A stretch of 13,829 nucleotides of DNA from a virus: UHGV virus genome UHGV-0094592, one strand, 5' to 3'. The notes beneath the pieces are model-generated. The model had not been told where the DNA came from, did not search any database, and saw only the letters and a program-made list of their open reading frames with translations. Both the position numbers and the translations under genes were made by a program. Shown here one piece after another: positions 3,006-13,829 of this stretch. Position 1 is the stretch's first letter, and every line of letters starts with the position of its first letter.

Positions 3006-3030
3006 AATTAACTACACCATTAACTACACC
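3006..3030. repeat. Island-boundary direct repeat, left copy (AATTAACTACACCATTAACTACACC; tandem 12-mer ATTAACTACACC x2); candidate att/arm site
   Basis: Perfect 25/25 identity to 13622-13646; imperfect homology continues about 45 bp to the right of both copies. Confidence 0.75.
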
Positions 3031-3521
3031 GTTCGGTGCACTGTATGCAACAATGCGGAACAAATAGACACAAGCGACGGGCTATACCGTTATCATTTTC
3101 CGGCTATCCGCCATGAAGCTGGTGGATGATCACGGATAAACCGTTATGGAAGTCCCCATATCGGCATCATGCCCACCAGCGAGATTAGTTATCTGGTTGC
3201 TGATGGGAGGCTGACGAACCTCGATGCTAGGGTGCGCAAAACTAGTGAGACCTTTTTTCTCTGCAACAGGCCCATAATTCGCGTTTTCTTTGTCTGCCGT
3301 AAGGTGGGGGATTTTTGGCGGATCCAGCAATGGCGCGGATTTTGTGATTTTTTATAGATAGACCTCATCTATCAATCCCGTGCACACCTTCCCAAAAAAA
3401 GTTTTCGAACCTGCGGCGATGTGAACAAGGGTAGGCGGGCGGTCCCATAAGCAATGAGGTGTAGGGATTTCTATCCCCCTGGGGGTATTAAACACCACCC
3501 GATTTAAATACCGTCTTTTTT

Positions 3522-3556
3522 GTCACTGTGTGTCACTCTCCGTCACGGTATGTCAC
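3522..3556. promoter_or_regulatory. Four helically phased GTCAC repeats (10-bp period); candidate protein-binding array
   Basis: GTCAC at 3522, 3532, 3542 and 3552, immediately downstream of the 93-aa gene stop (3563). Confidence 0.45.
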
Positions 3557-3562
3557 CACAAG

Positions 3563-3844
3563 TTAACGTCGTAACCGTTCCGGCTTCTTCCAGTGGTAAG
3601 TAATTTTTTCTTTCTCTTGGTACATCTGCACGCGGCGACGGTACGACAACATCTCCAGAACTCTGGCGCGTATGTTGCGCATATCCACGCCGTTAAGCTC
3701 GATACCGTCACGGCGCATCACCTCAGCAACAACACGCACATAATTTTCAGCGGTCACGCTGTCCGGCTGCGTGGCCTGTTCGTCAGCCTGCTGGCTGATT
3801 CCGGTAACGCGGCGGATTAATCGCAGTATTTCGGCTTCTGTCAT
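3563..3844 (-). CDS. Hypothetical protein (93 aa) downstream of TerS; possible packaging accessory factor
   Basis: ORF with RBS GGGGG 4 nt upstream of the ATG (3844); basic C-terminus. No recognisable family from sequence alone. Confidence 0.6.
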   Translation of the reverse strand: MTEAEILRLIRRVTGISQQADEQATQPDSVTAENYVRVVAEVMRRDGIELNGVDMRNIRARVLEMLSYRRRVQMYQEKEKITYHWKKPERLRR

Positions 3845-3917
3845 TGTGCCCCCATCGCTCTGATAGCCTGGTGTCGTCAGGTCCTTCCTGGAATTATGGC
3901 CCGTTACGGGGCGGCGG

Positions 3918-4460
3918 TTACTCGCCTTTGTTCTGTAGCAACTTCTCAGGCGCGCTTCCGGTAGTTTCCATCAGGTAATCAGCCAGTATCTGTGGCAGGT
4001 TTTCGTCAAGTCTTGCACATGCGTTACATGCTTTGGCTATTTCCCTTTTTAGTTCATCCAGCATATACGGCCTTATATCGGGAAAGCGCCTTTGCATTGT
4101 GAGCGGGAGGCTGTCCATGATTGATGAAATCTGACTCGCTAGTTTTGAAATCGCGTAGATGCAAAACTTTGTATCAATCACCTCGCCGCGTTCGCGCTCG
4201 TTTTTAAGTTCCTGCGCTTCCGCCTGTGCTGTCAGCAATCTGATTCTTACGCGTAAAAGTTCATCATCATCAATCTCGCCTTTGTCGTTTGTAAGCTGGT
4301 TAATTGCATTGTTAACCCTATTGTCTATCACGCTAGCAACATCATAAAACGCCTCACGGCCTTTACGCTCAACGGGAGTTACTCCCCACTTGTCGAACGC
4401 TGTCGCACTTACGCGGCAGCTTTGCGCCATAGTTTTTTTGTTCATCAGGTGCGATTTCAT
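3918..4460 (-). CDS. Terminase small subunit, phage lambda Nu1-like
   Basis: Translation (...RLLTAQAEAQELKNERERGEVIDTKFCIYAISKLASQISSIMDSLPLTMQRRFPD...) matches lambda gpNu1 as I recall it (RLTRAQADAQELKNARDSAEVVETAFCTFVLSRIAGEIASILDGLPLSVQRRFPE). ORF track start is GTG 4472; ATG at 4460 has RBS GGGGA and ATG at 4445 aligns with the Nu1 N-terminus (M..NKK). Confidence 0.85.
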   Translation of the reverse strand: MKSHLMNKKTMAQSCRVSATAFDKWGVTPVERKGREAFYDVASVIDNRVNNAINQLTNDKGEIDDDELLRVRIRLLTAQAEAQELKNERERGEVIDTKFCIYAISKLASQISSIMDSLPLTMQRRFPDIRPYMLDELKREIAKACNACARLDENLPQILADYLMETTGSAPEKLLQNKGE

Positions 4461-4472
4461 CAATATCCCCAC

Positions 4473-4637
4473 TTAGTTAAGGTTTCAGGTTGGTGTGTTG
4501 GTGTTATCTTTCCCTTTTTATTCATAGAGATAGAGCGAAAAACAAAACCACCACCACCAACCCGAAAAGGCTCATAAATAGCGAAAATCCGCAAGGTCGC
4601 CGCCCCGTAACGGGTCCATATGCCGGAAAGGACCCGT
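4473..4637 (-). other. Lambda-type cos site (cosQ-cosN-cosB) with exact cosN 12-mer GGGCGGCGACCT (minus strand, 4605..4594)
   Basis: Minus strand reads ...TTTACGGGTCCTTTCCGG-CATATGGACCCGTTACG-GGGCGGCGACCT-TGCGGATTTTCGCTATTTATGAGCCTTTTCGGG. Lambda right and left ends read ...TTTACGGGTCCTTTCCGGTGATCCGACAGGTTACG / GGGCGGCGACCTCGCGGGTTTTCGCTATTTATGAAAATTTTCCGG. It lies directly upstream of the Nu1-like gene, as in lambda. Confidence 0.85.
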
Positions 4638-4660
4638 AAAAAAAGCCGGATTTCTCCGGC
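4638..4660 (-). terminator. Rho-independent terminator after the capsid operon (stem GCCGGA/TCCGGC, 7-T run on minus strand)
   Basis: Hairpin 4645-4660 followed on the minus strand by TTTTTTT (4644..4638), 6 bp downstream of the 137-aa gene stop. Confidence 0.7.
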
Positions 4661-5439: not shown

Positions 5440-6495
5440 TTAAGCAATTTTGACGGTAACAAATTTGCGAATATCTGCCGGAACCGGCTGCGGTGCGCTG
5501 TGCGTCTGCACGTACTCAATCGCCGGATCGCCGTCCTCAATCCAGTTTTTCGGGTAGTACATGTTTTGCGTTGCGCCTGTTCTTACCGCTTCCTGATCCA
5601 TAATCGCACCATAGGCCACCAGCCCTTTGTTGTTGGTGTTGCCCAGGACCAGCAAATCAGGATCAAGGAAATATTTTTCTGTGCCGTCGCTGTCAGTGTA
5701 TTTGCCGGAATAGACGATAAGGGCCAGATCACCAAGATAGCCTTTAAAGCTCACCACTTCGCCCAGGTTTTTACATGCCAGCTCTGCGGCGGATTCTGAA
5801 CCACGGGAGAGATCGTACAGTTCACGGAATTTTTTAAAGCTGCGTAACATGCGCCATACATCAACGCCCATAATCATGACGTTTGCGGGGCAACCTGCCT
5901 GATCTGCGTATAGCTCAATGTCATAGATTGGGTCGTGTATGTCTTTGTCCTGCTCTGACCATTTTTTACCGTCGGCCTGCTCTATGATGTTTTTTTCCGG
6001 TATCTTCCAGTCGATTTCATAGCGCTCTATGCCTTCGCCCTCAATGATGTTTTTTCCGGTCGTTATCGCATTCACCGCCAGCCATTCCACGCGCGCTTTA
6101 ATGGCGTTTATCTGGCGGCGCATGTTGCCAGTAATCAGGCGCATACGGCGGTAGGTAGGGTCGTTAAGCTGTGCCGGATCTTCTCCAGCCATGCGCATTA
6201 TTGTTTTTAATGGATCGATTTCGTGTTTTGGCTTCATGTAGCCAGGGCGAATAATGCTGGTTTCGTACCCTTTATCGCGCTGAACCTGGCTACCAACCAT
6301 AGGCGAACAAAACGCCGACATAGTGACTTCTTCAATATCCAGGTTATCTAACATGATGTCCTGTGTGTTGAATGTCGCCACGTTCGGGAAAAACAGCGCG
6401 GTAAACAGCGGACTAAATTTAAATTCCGCAATATCCTCGCGATTCAGGTACGCGAAAAGCTGGTGTGTGTTAAGTGCCATTGCTTTGACTGCCAT
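5440..6495 (-). CDS. Major capsid protein, lambda gpE-like (351 aa)
   Basis: Conserved blocks EFKFSPLF, RPGYMKPKHEIDP, EDPAQLNDPTYRRMRLI, WSEQDKDIHDP, VSFKGYLGDLALIVYSGKYTD, LLVLGNTNNKGLVAYGAIMD and YPKNWIEDGDPAIE align with recalled lambda gpE (KFKFDPLF, TPGYVKPKHEVNP, EDPQNLADPAYRRRRII, WSKRDKSTYDP, VSYKGMYGDVAIVVYSGQYVE, MVLGNTQARGLRTYGCIQD, YPKNWVTTGDPAREF). [11 protein letters not shown]; start overlaps the upstream stop (TAATG). Confidence 0.9.
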   Translation of the reverse strand: MAVKAMALNTHQLFAYLNREDIAEFKFSPLFTALFFPNVATFNTQDIMLDNLDIEEVTMSAFCSPMVGSQVQRDKGYETSIIRPGYMKPKHEIDPLKTIMRMAGEDPAQLNDPTYRRMRLITGNMRRQINAIKARVEWLAVNAITTGKNIIEGEGIERYEIDWKIPEKNIIEQADGKKWSEQDKDIHDPIYDIELYADQAGCPANVMIMGVDVWRMLRSFKKFRELYDLSRGSESAAELACKNLGEVVSFKGYLGDLALIVYSGKYTDSDGTEKYFLDPDLLVLGNTNNKGLVAYGAIMDQEAVRTGATQNMYYPKNWIEDGDPAIEYVQTHSAPQPVPADIRKFVTVKIA

Positions 6496-7787: not shown

Positions 7788-7796
7788 TCCTCACTG

Positions 7797-7990
7797 CTCC
7801 CCACTTTTACTACCCACTTTTTGAAATTACCCAACGTCTCCCCACTTCTTTTTTTTGTGATTCTAACGTGATGTTTTTCAATGTGTTTTTTATTCCCCAC
7901 TTTTTGGGGTATATACAGGTGGGAAAGTGGGGAATCACGTTTCAATTTTGTTAAATTCCCCACACTCCCCACTTTTACTACCCACTTTTT
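7797..7990. repeat. Putative origin of replication: iteron array (CCCCACTTTT family) flanking an AT-rich core
   Basis: 23-bp direct repeat CTCCCCACTTTTACTACCCACTTTT at 7797-7821 and 7965-7989. Additional TCCCCACTT copies at 7837-7848, 7893-7905, 7957-7966 and an inverted copy at 7924-7934. Located directly 3' of the helicase gene. Confidence 0.7.
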
Positions 7991-9404
7991 ACAGTGGGCG
8001 CACGTCATCACCGTCAATAGCAATAACGCCATCACCTTCCAGCTTGTACAGCCAGCGCCGGAAGTGTTTCATCTCATACCCCAGCTTTTTCATATCATCG
8101 CGCAACAACGGAATAGTGCATTTATCTCCGCGCTGTGTGCGTGAACGGATACAGCCCCATAGCGCGGCATGATTCTCCGTCTTGTTCCCGGCTTCCTCGA
8201 TGCGCTCCAGTTCAACGGGTGGGCGCGGCTTATCCACAACAACCAGCGACGTGATTAACTCCCCGTCAGTGTCGGTAAAAAGCTCCACCACACGTAAATC
8301 GTATGCGGCCTCTTTCAGTTCCTCCGCGTCCTTCATTTTTGTGCAGGAGATAACCAGGGCTTCACTGTCTGCACCTTCACGGCGAATACGGTATTCAGCG
8401 TCCAGAGATGCACGAAATGCACTGGAACCACGCGCCCCCTTTGTTTCATCCTTGCCGGAATGGTGAACCACCAGCACCGTGGCCCCTGTGCGGCGTTTCA
8501 GTTCGTCACATCCACGGATAAACGCCCCCATATCCCGCGCGTCATTTTCATCATTACCGCCAAAGCAACGCGCCAGCGTATCAAGAATAATCATGCGTAC
8601 CGGTTTACCCGTTTCCCGTTCAACCTGGCGGGAAGCGATGACCATTTCATCAACATCAAGCGGGACTGCCGGAAAAATCGGGCGGTTTACCAGGTACAGA
8701 TTTTCCACCCGTTCATCATTAACGATTTCCCATGCCTTGATACGGCGGGGGACACCAATGCCACCTTCACCGACAACATACATCACCGAACCATGCGCCA
8801 CCCTGCGGCCTCCCCAGTGACGGCCAGTGGCAACATGACACGCCCAGGAACACGCGAGGAACGATTTATAGGAACCGCTCGCGCCGTATGTGCTGCACAA
8901 TGAATTAGCCGGAATCACGCCCTTAACGACATAATCAAGCTGTGTGTCGTACCCTGCAGATCCAATGCTCATTGGTAGCGTGGTTTTTCGCTGGCTGTAT
9001 TGCTCGTCAGTAAGTATTTCCCCGCGCTCTGCCTGTTCGCGGATCCGTTGCAGGTAGTCGTGCCAGTTCTCCAGCTTCTGGCTGTGCATTCCATCAGGGT
9101 AATAATTCGCATCCCGTACACCTGCCGCCGCCAGCTTTTGCCCGATAGCATTAATATTTGACGGCTTGATGTGGCCTGCCTTGTACAGCCGGACACAATA
9201 GCGACCATCGTCGATAATTTTCAGGTCTGCCAGTTCGTCAAGCTGGCTGTCTCCCAGCCATACAGGCGGGACGTTATCACCAGCAAGTCGCCCGTCCTGT
9301 TCCTGCCACTGTTTCGCGTGCGCCCAGGCATCACTACCCGCAAAAATAATGACTTCGGTCATTTTGTCGTGTGGCTGTTTTTTTAAGTTCGGTGCCAGTT
9401 TCAT
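7989..9404 (-). CDS. Replication helicase, RepA/AAA_25-like P-loop NTPase with an N-terminal domain of unknown function
   Basis: 471 aa. P-loop-like YGASGSYKSF, Walker B-like RMIILDTLARCFGG and the VLVVHHSGKD motif typical of RepA/AAA_25-type helicases. RBS AGGGG. Start overlaps the upstream stop (ATGA). Confidence 0.8.
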   Translation of the reverse strand: MKLAPNLKKQPHDKMTEVIIFAGSDAWAHAKQWQEQDGRLAGDNVPPVWLGDSQLDELADLKIIDDGRYCVRLYKAGHIKPSNINAIGQKLAAAGVRDANYYPDGMHSQKLENWHDYLQRIREQAERGEILTDEQYSQRKTTLPMSIGSAGYDTQLDYVVKGVIPANSLCSTYGASGSYKSFLACSWACHVATGRHWGGRRVAHGSVMYVVGEGGIGVPRRIKAWEIVNDERVENLYLVNRPIFPAVPLDVDEMVIASRQVERETGKPVRMIILDTLARCFGGNDENDARDMGAFIRGCDELKRRTGATVLVVHHSGKDETKGARGSSAFRASLDAEYRIRREGADSEALVISCTKMKDAEELKEAAYDLRVVELFTDTDGELITSLVVVDKPRPPVELERIEEAGNKTENHAALWGCIRSRTQRGDKCTIPLLRDDMKKLGYEMKHFRRWLYKLEGDGVIAIDGDDVRPL

Positions 9405-10571: not shown

Positions 10572-11762
10572 CTATCGTTGGTGGTTAGACGCCCCGTATG
10601 TGTTTCCGGCACTGCGGGGCGTTGCTCTTTGTATTTCAACAATTCTTTTGGTGTGTTTCATGTTATGAGCGCATGAAACACACGTCAAGGCTTTTTGTAT
10701 TTCTTTTTTTGTGTATACTGAAACACACCGATGATTAGGAGTTTCAGAAATGGCAACGGCTAACAAAAACGCAAAATCACAACTGACAACTGTCAGAGTC
10801 CCACTAGATGTTATGCAAGGGATGGAATCCGTTAAGCTGGACGGCGAAAGCAATGCCGGATTTATCGTAACCGCCATGCGCGGAGAAATAGCCCGCCGCC
10901 AAGCAGAAGGCAGCGGAGAAAATCCCCTTGTGTCGTCACTGGATGCCCTGGCTAAGGTCGAACAAATCGGCATCAAAGCAGCGGAAGAAATCGGGCAGCT
11001 TGTCACCGTTGCACGCGAAGAACTCCAGCGTCGCAAGACCAAAGAACCAGAGTAATCACCATCAGCGCCGTGGTGTAAGGTATTACGGCGCATTGCTATG
11101 CAGGACAACACAATGACCGATAAAGAATTGACCAAAACATTATCACCGGCACGGAAAAGACGGCGCAGAAAGATAGAGCATGAATCAGAAAGATTCGCGC
11201 CATGTGCTTTTGCTCTTGAGAAATTCCTTAAAGAGCACAGGAAAAAGCTCTCGTTGCAAACCTTGGAACGAACCAAATCTGACTGATCACATTGCCCACC
11301 AGCCGCAAATGTGGCATTGTTGGTGATGCTCATGCGTTGGGGATAACGTGTAGCTTGTGTCGAGGGGCCACCGTAGCGGGTGGCCTTTGTTTTGCCTGTT
11401 ATCCGGCAATTGTGGCGCTTCGCCACACGGTTGATATAATCCCACTGCTCAGATTCATTTTTTGCGCAGTAGGTTAATTGTTCACAAAGGCGCTCCGGCA
11501 ACGGGGCGCTTTTTGTTTTTATTAGTTTGTAGAAACCTGACTCAGAGATAATGCTCATATTCTGATTGCCGTCAGGGGTGTAAGTTAAATTTACTCCCTT
11601 TTTATCATCAAACATCTGCAACGCTCTGGCGTTAACAATATTGGTTTCACTCCCGCCAGTAAGGCCGGAAATAACCGGAATAATTTCGGCAAAATTTTGC
11701 AGATTCTGTTTTTCAGGACGAACGAAGCCCCGCCCTTGTTCGGGAGAATATCCAGTATTCAT
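10572..11762 (-). CDS. Long open frame; only the N-terminal ~100 codons (from ATG 11762) look protein-like, with a possible Bro-N/KilA-N-like motif. The rest is probably non-coding or a pseudogene remnant
   Basis: N-terminus contains IISESGFYKLIKTKS, resembling a Bro-N-type motif as I recall it. The C-terminal two thirds are Ser/Cys/Arg-rich and antisense to two plus-strand ORFs with good RBSs, and span two plus-oriented terminators. Confidence 0.3.
   Translation of the reverse strand: MNTGYSPEQGRGFVRPEKQNLQNFAEIIPVISGLTGGSETNIVNARALQMFDDKKGVNLTYTPDGNQNMSIISESGFYKLIKTKSAPLPERLCEQLTYCAKNESEQWDYINRVAKRHNCRITGKTKATRYGGPSTQATRYPQRMSITNNATFAAGGQCDQSDLVRSKVCNESFFLCSLRNFSRAKAHGANLSDSCSIFLRRLFRAGDNVLVNSLSVIVLSCIAMRRNTLHHGADGDYSGSLVLRRWSSSRATVTSCPISSAALMPICSTLARASSDDTRGFSPLPSAWRRAISPRMAVTINPALLSPSSLTDSIPCITSSGTLTVVSCDFAFLLAVAISETPNHRCVSVYTKKEIQKALTCVSCAHNMKHTKRIVEIQRATPRSAGNTYGASNHQR
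10651..10688 (-). promoter_or_regulatory. Sigma70-like promoter for the minus-strand operon (TTGACG-17-TAACAT) fully overlapped by a 12-bp inverted-repeat operator
   Basis: Minus strand -35 TTGACG (10688..10683) and -10 TAACAT (10665..10660). Operator GTGTGTTTCATG-9bp-CATGAAACACAC spans 10651-10683. Related GAAACACA sites lie at 10720-10728 and in the hairpin loop at 10596-10627. Confidence 0.6.
10750..11055 (+). CDS. Hypothetical regulator-like protein (101 aa), divergently transcribed from the island operons; candidate repressor
   Basis: Strong RBS TAGGAG 8 nt upstream. Plausible -10 TATACT (10714-10719) with an operator half-site at the predicted start. Balanced composition; N-terminal beta-strand plus helix pattern (TTVRVPLDVMQGMESVKL) reminiscent of ribbon-helix-helix proteins. 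Confidence 0.6.
   Translation: MATANKNAKSQLTTVRVPLDVMQGMESVKLDGESNAGFIVTAMRGEIARRQAEGSGENPLVSSLDALAKVEQIGIKAAEEIGQLVTVAREELQRRKTKEPE
11113..11286 (+). CDS. Hypothetical small basic protein (57 aa; ORF track lists 11098..11286)
   Basis: ATG at 11113 has AGGA 7 nt upstream; very basic (RKRRRRK) N-terminal segment. Confidence 0.45.
   Translation: MTDKELTKTLSPARKRRRRKIEHESERFAPCAFALEKFLKEHRKKLSLQTLERTKSD
11366..11393 (+). terminator. Rho-independent terminator (stem GGCCACC/GGTGGCC, then TTTGTTTT) for the plus-strand unit
   Basis: Perfect 7-bp stem with 6-nt loop and a T-rich tail on the plus strand. Confidence 0.6.
11490..11520 (+). terminator. Second plus-strand rho-independent terminator (stem GCGCTCCG/CGGGGCGC, GCAA tetraloop, TTTTTGTTTTT)
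   Basis: 8-bp stem with one G-U pair, GNRA-type loop, and 11-nt T-rich tail. Confidence 0.65.
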
Positions 11763-11814: not shown

Positions 11815-12003
11815 TTAGTGAACTGCCTCGCAGCTTTCCTTCCATGCCAGAACTTCGGATAAAGACCAGCCAACGGAACGACCGCCGAGCTTACGCCGTG
11901 ATGGGAATTGTCCGGTTTTTTCCAGGCGGTACCGACATGAACGGCTCAGGCCTGTAAGTTGCTGACATTCTTTTTCACGTATAAAGCGATCTGTGCTTAA
12001 CAC
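11815..12003 (-). CDS. alpA: AlpA-family (prophage CP4-57-type) transcriptional regulator, 62 aa from GTG start
   Basis: Motif ...CQQLTGLSRSCRYRLEKTGQFPSRRKLGGRSVGWSLSEVLAWKESC is the AlpA/Vis-type HTH signature. GTG at 12003 is preceded by AGGGGGA. ORF track lists a longer 11815..12171 version. Confidence 0.8.
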   Translation of the reverse strand: MLSTDRFIREKECQQLTGLSRSCRYRLEKTGQFPSRRKLGGRSVGWSLSEVLAWKESCEAVH

Positions 12004-12288
12004 AATTCCCCCTTTGATATTTCTTAAAGAGTTATTTGGTGTCCTATTGTGTTGTGGTGCGTCGGATTGTGTCAGGGTGTTTATGGAATGGCAAACACTG
12101 GCGGCGGTCATTTTACAGAAGTGTGGTAATGAGAATAAAAACTCTTTTAATTCATTGTGGTGCAAAGGCATAAAATTCTGTTTTTACGCCTTTTTTACAT
12201 GTTTTTAAGAGTGATTCGCCAATGTACAAAAAGCCAGTAAAACGACTGAAAATCAACTTTTTAGGGTGTCAGTCAGATGTTAATCAAG

Positions 12289-12346
12289 TTTGTTCCAGAT
12301 TGTTCGCCGTTGTTCGTCGTGGTGTCTCGTTGTTTCACGTTGTGTC
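12289..12346. promoter_or_regulatory. Cluster of TTGTTCG-like direct repeats between int and alpA; candidate regulator binding sites
   Basis: TGTTCC 12291, TTGTTCG 12300, TTGTTCG 12310 (10-bp spacing), TTGTTTC 12330, TTGTGTC 12340. Confidence 0.4.
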
Positions 12347-12370
12347 AGTTCTAAAAAATCGCAAAAAAAA

Positions 12371-13621
12371 TTATATTTCTCTGGCTATTGGCAGTGTGGT
12401 TACGTTTTTGTGAGTACCCGCCAGTATCTCTAACCGCTCTGTCCACATGTCCAGCGCATTACGTTTCGCATCGAGATAACGGGAGTGGTTATAGACTCGC
12501 TGCATCCCTGGCATCTGGTGAGCGGTGAGTTGTTCGACAATATGCGGATCCACGCCTAAATCGTTCAGCATCGTGGTAAACGTGCGCCGTATATCGTGTA
12601 GTGACCAGTGCGGATGGTTTAATTTTTTGTGCATGAATCTGCCGTATTGCGACACACTGGCTTCCTGTTTCAGTTCCCCGAGTAATAGCCCTGTGTGTCT
12701 GTTCTGCTCCACCAGCTGCGTGACGAACGGTAAAATGCTTTCCGGTATTGGCCTGAATATGGCGACCTTCGTTTTGCTGTGCTCTTTCGGTACTGTCCAG
12801 AGCATTTCCTTAAAATCCCACTCCCTGATCTCCGATAATCTCAGTTCTCCGGTTCGGCAGCCGAACACAATCAGGAGGCGGATTAGTGCGCTGTAGTAGG
12901 GCGGGAATATTTTTTTATCCAGCGCCTGTAATAATTCGCCAAGTTCTTTGTTGCTCAGCACGCGTTCGCTTATGCCTGGTTTTTTGCCAACGTCCACCAC
13001 GTTAAGATCATCCAGAACGTTACTGACTGCGTAGCGACGTTTACGGCAGAACTTAAGCGCCTGTTTACACGCCTGCATCATGTGACCAGACGTTACAGGG
13101 GATTTTTTGCGTATCCGGTCAAAACAGGCCAGCCAGTGACGTAACTCGCATTTATCCAGTGGCATATTGCCAATATGCTGTATGACGTGATTATTCAGGC
13201 GGCTTTTCAGGCATACGTAATCGACACGGTTTTCCTTTACGTGCATTTCCAGCCAGTAGCTGATCGCATCACCCACCGTTACCGGCTTTAGTGCTTCCTG
13301 TATGGAGTAATTAAGCTCATGGCGTGGATTTTTTCCTTCTGCCAGCCATGCGCGACACTGTGCCGCTTTTTCCCTGGCTGCTTTCAGGCTCAGATCAGGA
13401 TAATTTCCCAGCTTCAGGCGTTCCGGTGATACCTGGCGTCCAGCTCCTGCTCTGTAGGTGAAATACCAGGTTAATAAGCCGCTGGTGGAATGCCTGACGC
13501 TCAGGTTTCCACCGTCATTAAGAAATGTGGTTTTTGGGGCTGGTGTGCCGTTGATTTTTCTTAGCTGTGTATCGCTCAGTTTGTTAAGTGCTCTGCTCAT
13601 AATTTTGAATCCGGTCATCAC
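12371..13621 (-). CDS. int: Tyrosine recombinase / integrase, P4-type
   Basis: 416-codon ORF. N-terminal region LSDTQLRKI...YPDLSLKAAREKAAQ resembles P4-family integrase N-termini. C-terminal catalytic motifs include HDIRRTF (HxxR) and a tyrosine within RVYNHSRYLD. ORF-track start is GTG 13621; in-frame ATGs at 13618 and 13600 are alternative starts. Confidence 0.9.
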   Translation of the reverse strand: MMTGFKIMSRALNKLSDTQLRKINGTPAPKTTFLNDGGNLSVRHSTSGLLTWYFTYRAGAGRQVSPERLKLGNYPDLSLKAAREKAAQCRAWLAEGKNPRHELNYSIQEALKPVTVGDAISYWLEMHVKENRVDYVCLKSRLNNHVIQHIGNMPLDKCELRHWLACFDRIRKKSPVTSGHMMQACKQALKFCRKRRYAVSNVLDDLNVVDVGKKPGISERVLSNKELGELLQALDKKIFPPYYSALIRLLIVFGCRTGELRLSEIREWDFKEMLWTVPKEHSKTKVAIFRPIPESILPFVTQLVEQNRHTGLLLGELKQEASVSQYGRFMHKKLNHPHWSLHDIRRTFTTMLNDLGVDPHIVEQLTAHQMPGMQRVYNHSRYLDAKRNALDMWTERLEILAGTHKNVTTLPIAREI

Positions 13622-13646
13622 AATTAACTACACCATTAACTACACC
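13622..13646. repeat. Island-boundary direct repeat, right copy (AATTAACTACACCATTAACTACACC), immediately upstream of int
   Basis: Identical to 3006-3030. Confidence 0.75.
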
Positions 13647-13829
13647 GATCATTGCACAAGGGGGTACAACGTGGAACAAGTTGGAACAAGAAAAATTGCA
13701 ATGAGCTTAAAAATCAAAAACATAATGAACAACGTGGCACATTATGAAACAGCAAAAAACACTAATTTATAAAATCACAGCGATGAATATAAAATGCCAG
13801 GTTATTGCCCCTTCCCGCATACCAAAATC

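Follow-up and report, generated by a model that had tools for sequence, protein, structure and literature searches.

What does a pentamer repeated once per helical turn do at the end of a phage satellite? The window analyzed here, the whole stretch of 13,829 nucleotides, carries four copies of GTCAC that start at positions 3522, 3532, 3542, and 3552 of the + strand. A first-pass annotation had read this exact 10-bp spacing, which we confirmed, as a sign of cooperative docking on one face of the DNA by an integrase, an excision factor, or a packaging protein. The general idea of same-face docking holds up, as the array is beyond chance, keeps its register among relatives, and is constrained in its core, but the candidate proteins named at that time do not.

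The island and its phased array

The DNA matches E. coli "clone D i14" at 100% identity, and in that strain the element splits an IS110-family transposase gene. Since this identity is joined by the location published for the phage-inducible chromosomal island (PICI) EcCIDi14, which lies in an IS110 transposase gene (PMC10111431), the window is almost certainly EcCIDi14, a reference Gram-negative PICI. The true junctions between the island and the IS110 gene are at about 2950 and about 13760, outside the doublets at the island ends that are described below. Every gene from about 3.5 to 13.6 kb is on the - strand, and genes for a DUF4222 protein, SSB, a gpD-like decoration protein, and a Nu3-like protein accompany those among the following features:

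2700-2954 and 13762-13829: IS110-family (ISEc45-like) transposase gene, interrupted by the island
3510-3521, - strand: flank A(4-6)GACGGT (ACCGTCTTTTTT on the + strand), found 3' of every satellite-type array in gene orientation
3522-3556, - strand: GTCAC array of four units (GTGAC in gene direction), supported by shuffles, homologous arrays, and core-versus-spacer constraint
3563-3844, - strand: orf93 (93 aa, phrog_1561), last gene of the late (capsid/packaging) operon
3918-4472, - strand: Nu1-like small terminase, with a Pfam Phage_Nu1 match from residue 37 onward only
5440-6495, - strand: lambda gpE-like major capsid protein
7795-7989: probable island ori directly 3' of the helicase gene, with repeated AAAAGTGGGGA / AAAAGTGGGTAGTA flanking an AT-rich stretch
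7989-9404, - strand: RepA-family helicase
11815-12003, - strand: AlpA
12371-13621, - strand: P4-type integrase with the arm-DNA-binding domain PF13356

On the + strand the four units read TTGTCACTGT, GTGTCACTCT, CCGTCACGGT, and ATGTCACCAC, and in gene orientation they read GGTGACATAC, CGTGACGGAG, AGTGACACAC, and AGTGACAAAA; the core is identical throughout, while the spacers are unlike. The array starts 6 nt past the orf93 stop codon in gene orientation and ends in its own form of the flank, A6-GACGGT, from which 35 nt lead to an HK97-type cos-like segment. We found no convincing gene within 3032-3562, in agreement with the earlier placement of the array in a noncoding stretch, and scans for promoters, terminators, and Rfam families gave no signal at the array. 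The adjoining DNA consists of A6 and about 20 bp of moderately AT-rich sequence, and a long AT-rich element is absent.

GTCAC occurs 22 times in the whole window against a chance mean of 22.2, so that clustering and phasing, and not motif frequency, carry the signal. Four copies of any pentamer at 10-bp spacing never arose in 300 dinucleotide-preserving shuffles of the window, in which the maximum was three phased copies (seen in 6 of 300), and the analytic expectation for four phased GTCAC copies is 3e-8. At the other periods from 9 to 12 that were tested for GTCAC in the window, the longest run was two.

The DNA between orf93 and the island end also holds other small elements. Past the cos-like segment, toward the island end, are two Chi sequences (GCTGGTGG) in opposite orientation (3118-3125 on the + strand and 3173-3180 on the - strand), one of which is conserved at the corresponding position among relatives in the HK97-cos class. 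Array-less satellites such as L099, L112, and L164 have one to four modules 3' of orf93 instead, each made up of TAACNNGTTGATATTYYCG, which matches the IHF consensus, and a palindrome with a GC stem and an AT center.

Distribution of the array among related satellites

Relatives were gathered through orf93 homology and exact pattern scans, and a scan of genome contigs with orf93 as the query added one useful locus only. Satellite-type arrays are present in at least 39 IMG/VR contigs, with three, four, or five units that are always in exact 10-bp register and identically oriented, and an orf93 homolog lies upstream in 38 of the 39, the remaining contig being too short to judge. The first-pass annotation had named conservation in related elements as a check, and on this point its expectation was borne out: the array recurs in related satellites with its register and orientation kept. 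Its offset from the orf93 stop codon ranges from 6 to 404 nt across relatives, and where it is displaced the gap holds modules that match the IHF consensus along with small palindromes. On its other side the flank A(4-6)GACGGT is constant whatever DNA comes beyond it, which is the HK97-type cos class in 17 contigs and another module, "modII," for which neither a phage match nor a recognizable cos was found, in 21 of the 39. The hosts of the array comprise lambda-type PICIs, one ClpP-capsid fusion, and full cf-PICIs, which encode HK97-type capsid, portal, HNH, TerS, and TerL proteins of their own. Their integration sites vary (tqsA, tRNA-Pro, yifB, and IS110), and their integrases differ too.

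Among 5426 complete E. coli genomes, at least 231 carry the five-unit array type, which is a lower bound, as the four-unit form of the window sits in a further ~72 genomes; orf93 is present in 1418 genomes. We did not find the array on plasmids or in sequenced phages. Many orf93 satellites are array-less, for example, the O157:H7 island beside phoQ, and no alternative phased array was detected in these array-less relatives. Two contigs (L107 and L140) have decayed remnants of two units, next to which the flank is nevertheless kept.

Such a distribution might be expected of a functionless 10-bp tandem repeat, or of a relic in a recombination-prone spacer. The array is facultative, and its units appear to be gained and lost in register, with three, four, or five in intact arrays and two in the remnants. 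Moreover, the spacer between orf93 and att is a mosaic of exchangeable small cis-acting modules, a patchwork in which short palindromes and IHF-like modules are shuffled among relatives. A neutral repeat, however, is at odds with spacers that diverge around fixed cores. Pairwise comparison of the five canonical units gave 0 differences at each core position, while 4 to 9 of 10 pairs differ at each spacer position, and the array variants have seven distinct spacer substitutions versus one in the core (one-sided binomial p = 0.035). The array also persists where other modules of the satellites have been swapped, and we consider a neutral origin unlikely. As it is constrained between relatives yet missing or decayed in many of them, the array is real, phased, core-constrained, and conserved in register and orientation, yet facultative and dispensable.

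Satellite proteins and packaging signals as partners of the array

When protein identities were tabulated for the 56 loci that had sufficient flanking sequence, the presence of the array did not co-vary with Int, AlpA, RepA, or the capsid, decoration, Nu3-like, and Nu1-like proteins, nor did it co-vary with SSB, orf68, DUF4222, or the 396-aa Bro-like protein orf396. A Nu1-like TerS that is 99% identical occurs in both array-bearing and array-less loci, and three different Rep types accompany the array. When the array was compared with every ORF cluster at 43 loci, the only associations were spurious ORFs that overlap the alternative downstream DNA. The satellite's own Rep was set aside as the binder, since the repeats of the window's ori differ from GTCAC, are unrelated to it, and have no copy near the array.

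Integrase arm sites and excision factor sites, which would help to assemble the excision and integration complex, had been the first candidates for the array. The arm-type consensus of lambda Int is (C/A)AGTCACTAT, which the GTCAC core resembles, and the lambda P'1-P'3 sites stand in tandem in a 10-11-bp layout. Both these sites and the doubled motif of HE-PICI attP share with the array the arrangement of tandem direct repeats about 10 to 12 bp apart, the island integrase has an arm-DNA-binding domain (PF13356), and excisionase sites typically consist of phased direct repeats. Against this, all four GTCAC copies form a single cluster about 490 bp inside the left-end motif, thus on one arm only, and int has none in its vicinity. 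Relatives differ in the spacing between array and island end (about 320 to 630 bp), whereas the doubled motif of HE-PICI attP sites is positioned to within 2 bp (PMC10111431), which makes the array a poor fit to an intasome element. Nor does the array follow the integrase type, as integrases that are 85 to 87% identical occur with and without it, unrelated integrases (21 to 24% identity) do likewise, and many satellites with the same integrase lack it. AlpA has been reported to act in the alpA-int intergenic region, and there (12004-12370, upstream of alpA) we found neither GTCAC nor GTGAC; AlpA proteins that are 97% identical occur with and without the array, which is interior to the end doublet described below by the same ~490 bp. 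It is very unlikely that Int or AlpA is the partner, and the array is probably neither an integrase nor an excision site of the satellite itself.

The role of arm sites may be filled by another repeat instead:

3006-3031 and 13622-13647, co-oriented at both island ends: tandem doublet ttAACTACACCattAACTACACCg (AACTACACC x2)

Its left copy had been noted previously as a "left repeat" bordering the noncoding stretch of the array. The repeat is indeed present, but it is not the recombination core: relatives integrated in tqsA and in yifB have the 26-nt doublet at their ends too, and it is therefore island DNA and not a crossover core. Doublets of AACTACACC accompany only integrases that are 75 to 100% identical to that of the window, and none were found with unrelated integrases; they parallel the doubled motif that has been reported for attP of HE-PICIs (PMC10111431). 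They are likely to be the integrase arm-type sites, judging from sequence, and are better candidates than the array because they supply four co-oriented half-sites (for a tetramer) and are tied to an integrase clade. The search for integrase arm sites is thereby redirected to these doublets.

A packaging protein had been the third suggestion, and the array does lie in a region with several cos-like sites:

3391-3486, - strand: HK97-type cos-like segment, which aligns with the spacer between HNH and terS in HK97-like lambdoid phages (mEp235, Fraca, vB_EcoS-640R1, and others)
3880-3916, + strand: second, partial lambda-type cos, inverted (GGTCCTTCCTGG...CCGTTACGGGGCGGCG)
4594-4611 (within 4594-4640), - strand: complete lambda-type cos with an exact GTTACG directly followed by GGGCGGCGACCT and a cosQ-like GGGTCCTTTCCGG upstream

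The HK97-type segment combines a G/C run, CCCCCAGGGGG, with GGGACCGCCCGCC, the counterpart of the HK97/mEp235 nick region GACCGCCGCC at the HK97 right end, and with CATCGCCGCAGGTTCGAAAACTTTTTTT, which corresponds to the phage sequence immediately 5' of terS. It also includes the region that corresponds to the phage TerS site. What had been described as GC-rich palindromes at 3463-3490 does contain a palindrome, CCCCCTGGGGG at 3476-3486, and turned out to be the G/C run of this cos-like site. At the complete lambda-type cos, identity with lambda extends to about +45 and is followed by a divergent cosB (4473-4593), rich in GTTGGTG/CACCAAC repeats, that extends as far as the 5' end of the Nu1-like gene. 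The N-terminal DNA-binding part of the Nu1-like terminase is unlike that of lambda Nu1, which fits the divergent cosB. The two cos-like sites that flank this gene recall cos1 and cos2 of EcCICFT073, and the sequence suggests that two different helper systems may be able to package the island.

The array could thus be an accessory of the adjacent cos, that is, a cosQ- or cosB-like element read by the terminase of a helper or cf-PICI or by an HNH protein. Its distance to the HK97-type cos-like segment is fixed in the window and 16 other contigs, the region has several cos sites, and E. coli PICIs use cosB determinants of their own (PMC6739421). Like the R sites of lambda cosB, or the PICI cosB of EcCICFT073 that is read by Rpp-TerS (PMC6739421), the array would be a cis element that is specific to the satellite and lies close to a helper-like cos. 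By analogy with HK97 and lambda, it is nevertheless on the wrong side of the nick, 76 to 122 nt upstream of the cosN-like GGGACCGCCCGCC and not between cosN and terS. The known sites of TerS are across the nick from it: that of HK97 spans +15 to +29 on the downstream side of the cut (PMC11331095), and in lambda, cosB likewise lies downstream, beyond cosN. The likely lambda-type cosB of the window is elsewhere, at 4473-4593. Phages that share the HK97-type cos have the end of the HNH gene at the position of the array and no array, and the cos regions of HK97, mEp235, and 640R1 were found to contain no comparable phased motif. Array and cos also occur separately: the HK97-type cos is present without the array in L136 and L159, 21 of the 39 arrays are followed by the module that has no recognizable cos, and the array is independent of the TerS or Rpp type, including the Nu1-like TerS. 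A function in packaging is therefore improbable in our view.

The one constant partner of the array across lambda-type PICIs and cf-PICIs is orf93. Its product is small, basic, and helical, with a net positive charge and a basic C terminus, and its family is narrow (984 close homologs fall into 37 clusters at 50% identity). Searches of Pfam and the PDB gave no match, and as tblastn found none among sequenced phages either, orf93 appears to be satellite-specific. The array might be the binding site of this protein, either in a gene-then-site layout like those of sopB-sopC and parB-parS or as the site of an accessory packaging protein near cos. An orf93 homolog lies 5' of 38 of the 39 arrays in fixed orientation, often at 6 nt, and every contig that could be checked has one; the positive charge and basic C terminus would suit DNA binding. 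Mutation of "hypothetical gene 1792" in the packaging module of EcCIEDL933, which may or may not be the orf93 homolog, severely reduces transfer. However, many orf93 loci are array-less, as seen from the at least 231 genomes with an array (five-unit type only) versus the 1418 with orf93, and the presence of the array is independent of the orf93 sequence, since array-less proteins are ~90% identical to that of the window and arrayed ones are 84 to 87% or 99% identical. The AF2 model (pLDDT 68), which predicts three helices, has no recognizable DNA-binding fold and gave no match in a fold-library search. A partition centromere of the parS or sopC kind would also follow its gene, as the array follows orf93, but the island has no ParA-like gene that could be the partner of orf93. 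Binding by orf93 thus seems rather doubtful; if orf93 does dock at the array, this would give the first handle on a protein that is conserved across PICI types.

Resemblance to origin iterons and a binder acting in trans

The closest architectural match to the array is a set of origin iterons, as it consists of three to five direct repeats with exactly 10-bp spacing and an invariant core. An exact IMG/VR scan for four GTGAC copies separated by N5 returned at least 120 loci, about six of which are these satellites among the matches listed, and in the sample of loci whose context was examined, GTGAC arrays lie mostly in replication modules. A few adjoin terminase genes, so the motif is not exclusive to origins. 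More generally, (C/T)GTGAC at an exact 10-11-bp period is seen in many unrelated viral contigs of IMG/VR (L173-L291).

In several unrelated families, the array is inside a gene for a replisome organizer or "replication protein O," where it encodes VT/SH-rich linkers. The common enterobacterial O family has one cluster of six units (nt 134-186) and another of five (nt 415-456); the latter is followed by an AT-rich GATAAA run, GATAAAGATACAGATACAGAA, in a lambda-like arrangement with ori inside O. In another contig (L275), four copies of AGTGACACAA are directly 3' of a gene for a Prim-Pol/D5 helicase, the canonical position of a PICI or P4 ori. The primase-helicase of L275 was discarded as the binder, as we found no counterpart of its C-terminal part in these satellites and E. 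coli genomes lack the protein.

The origins of lambda (gene O) and SPP1 (oriL, gene 38) and the GTGAC origins of the O type share with the satellite array four to six short direct repeats, an invariant core, and 10-11-bp phasing. The GTGAC origins have, in addition, the same core, GTGAC(A), and a 17-mer, AGTGACACGCCGTGACA, is common to a phage ori array and one variant of the satellite array. The satellite array differs from these origins within O genes in that it is intergenic, has no initiator gene adjacent and no long AT-rich run, and departs from the phage consensus CGTGAC at position -1, which is C in 9 of 11 phage units and G, C, A, A, and A/C in the satellite units.

Phage P4, with its ori and the distant second cluster crr, both bound by the alpha primase-helicase, provides a precedent for a satellite with an iteron cluster far from rep. 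Its true analogue is the cf-PICI L013, as the GTCAC units of the window are unrelated to the repeats of its own ori. In L013, the iterons of its own Rep, GCGGGTTA, lie 3' of rep and again, around an AT-rich center, in the spacer between orf93 and att (12 matches in two clusters, 11088-11240 and 19350-19472, against 0.62 expected), and this spacer can thus carry replication cis elements. The same contig has two HK97-type cos-like sites, one between hnh and terS at about 13800-13900 and one near 11010.

Of the readings considered, we favor the one in which the array is a conserved, optional docking site of the iteron type and its binder acts in trans and is possibly the replication initiator of a helper phage, a candidate suggested by motif similarity; this is a tentative proposal and one that we would not yet call probable. 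According to this proposal, the head-to-tail GTGAC(A) cores, placed once per helical turn, would align three to five protein copies on one face of the DNA, within the cis-acting tail that extends from the last late gene to the cos/att end of E. coli PICIs. The binder would most likely be supplied in trans and would not be one of the variable proteins of the satellite. The preferred candidate would be a helper initiator of the replisome organizer or protein O type, the own origins of which are made of (C)GTGAC iterons at 10-11-bp spacing, and the array would allow the satellite to recruit or titrate this initiator, beside a cos that has been copied from the same kind of helper. That no satellite protein co-varies with the array, together with its patchy spread, is as expected of a helper-matched cis element, and the neighboring cos modules are similarly patchy. 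The O-type initiator is present in 24 sequenced phage records, 7 of them from E. coli, and 4 of these 7 (689R5, 640R1, 813R8, and 606R7) are among the 15 Escherichia or Enterobacteria records that have the HK97-type cos of the satellite.

The more specific form of the proposal, in which the array mimics a helper origin beside the HK97-type cos, recruits or soaks up the O-type initiator, and is exchanged as a helper-matched cis cassette, appears unlikely, and several observations weigh against a helper initiator. The -1 base is variable in the satellites in contrast to the CGTGAC consensus of the phages, and no long AT-rich unwinding element lies beside the satellite array. Phage mEp235 shares the cos yet has different O iterons, and the four phages that link the cos with this O type may all belong to one lineage. 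The array can be dispensed with, as many relatives lack it or have it in decayed form, and the satellite has its own Rep and different ori iterons (7795-7989). Finally, co-residence is not enriched: in a crude comparison by IMG genome id of satellite genomes with GTGAC-ori prophages, an O-type prophage was present in 1 of 30 array-bearing versus 3 of ~25 array-less genomes among the matches listed.

The remaining probability falls to host factors or roles at the RNA level, the latter having no promoter, terminator, or Rfam signal in their support. Among host factors, MatP was set aside because matS, which has GTGAC as its half-site, is palindromic. The period of the pho box is 11 bp, which argues against boxes of the PhoB/OmpR type, and the half-sites of CRP are inverted. 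We know of no LexA or P2 Ogr/Delta site that matches the array.

A literature search found no paper on GTCAC direct repeats in PICIs, and EcCIDi14 was named only in passing. The island is already known, and phased direct-repeat docking arrays are a known kind of element; the array itself and its distribution appear to be undescribed. PICIs and cf-PICIs of E. coli are intensively studied, while the tail from the last late gene to att has hardly been dissected beyond cos. We can now count in this tail cos sites of both the lambda and the HK97 type, Chi sequences, a second set of Rep iterons (in one relative), and the phased array, which at least 4% of complete E. coli genomes carry. If the array is functionless, it is merely a tidy tandem repeat. 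If a helper or host protein docks there, it would mark an unrecognized contact between satellite and helper, and if the array is an origin mimic, satellite piracy or interference would gain a layer, so far undescribed, at the initiation of replication.
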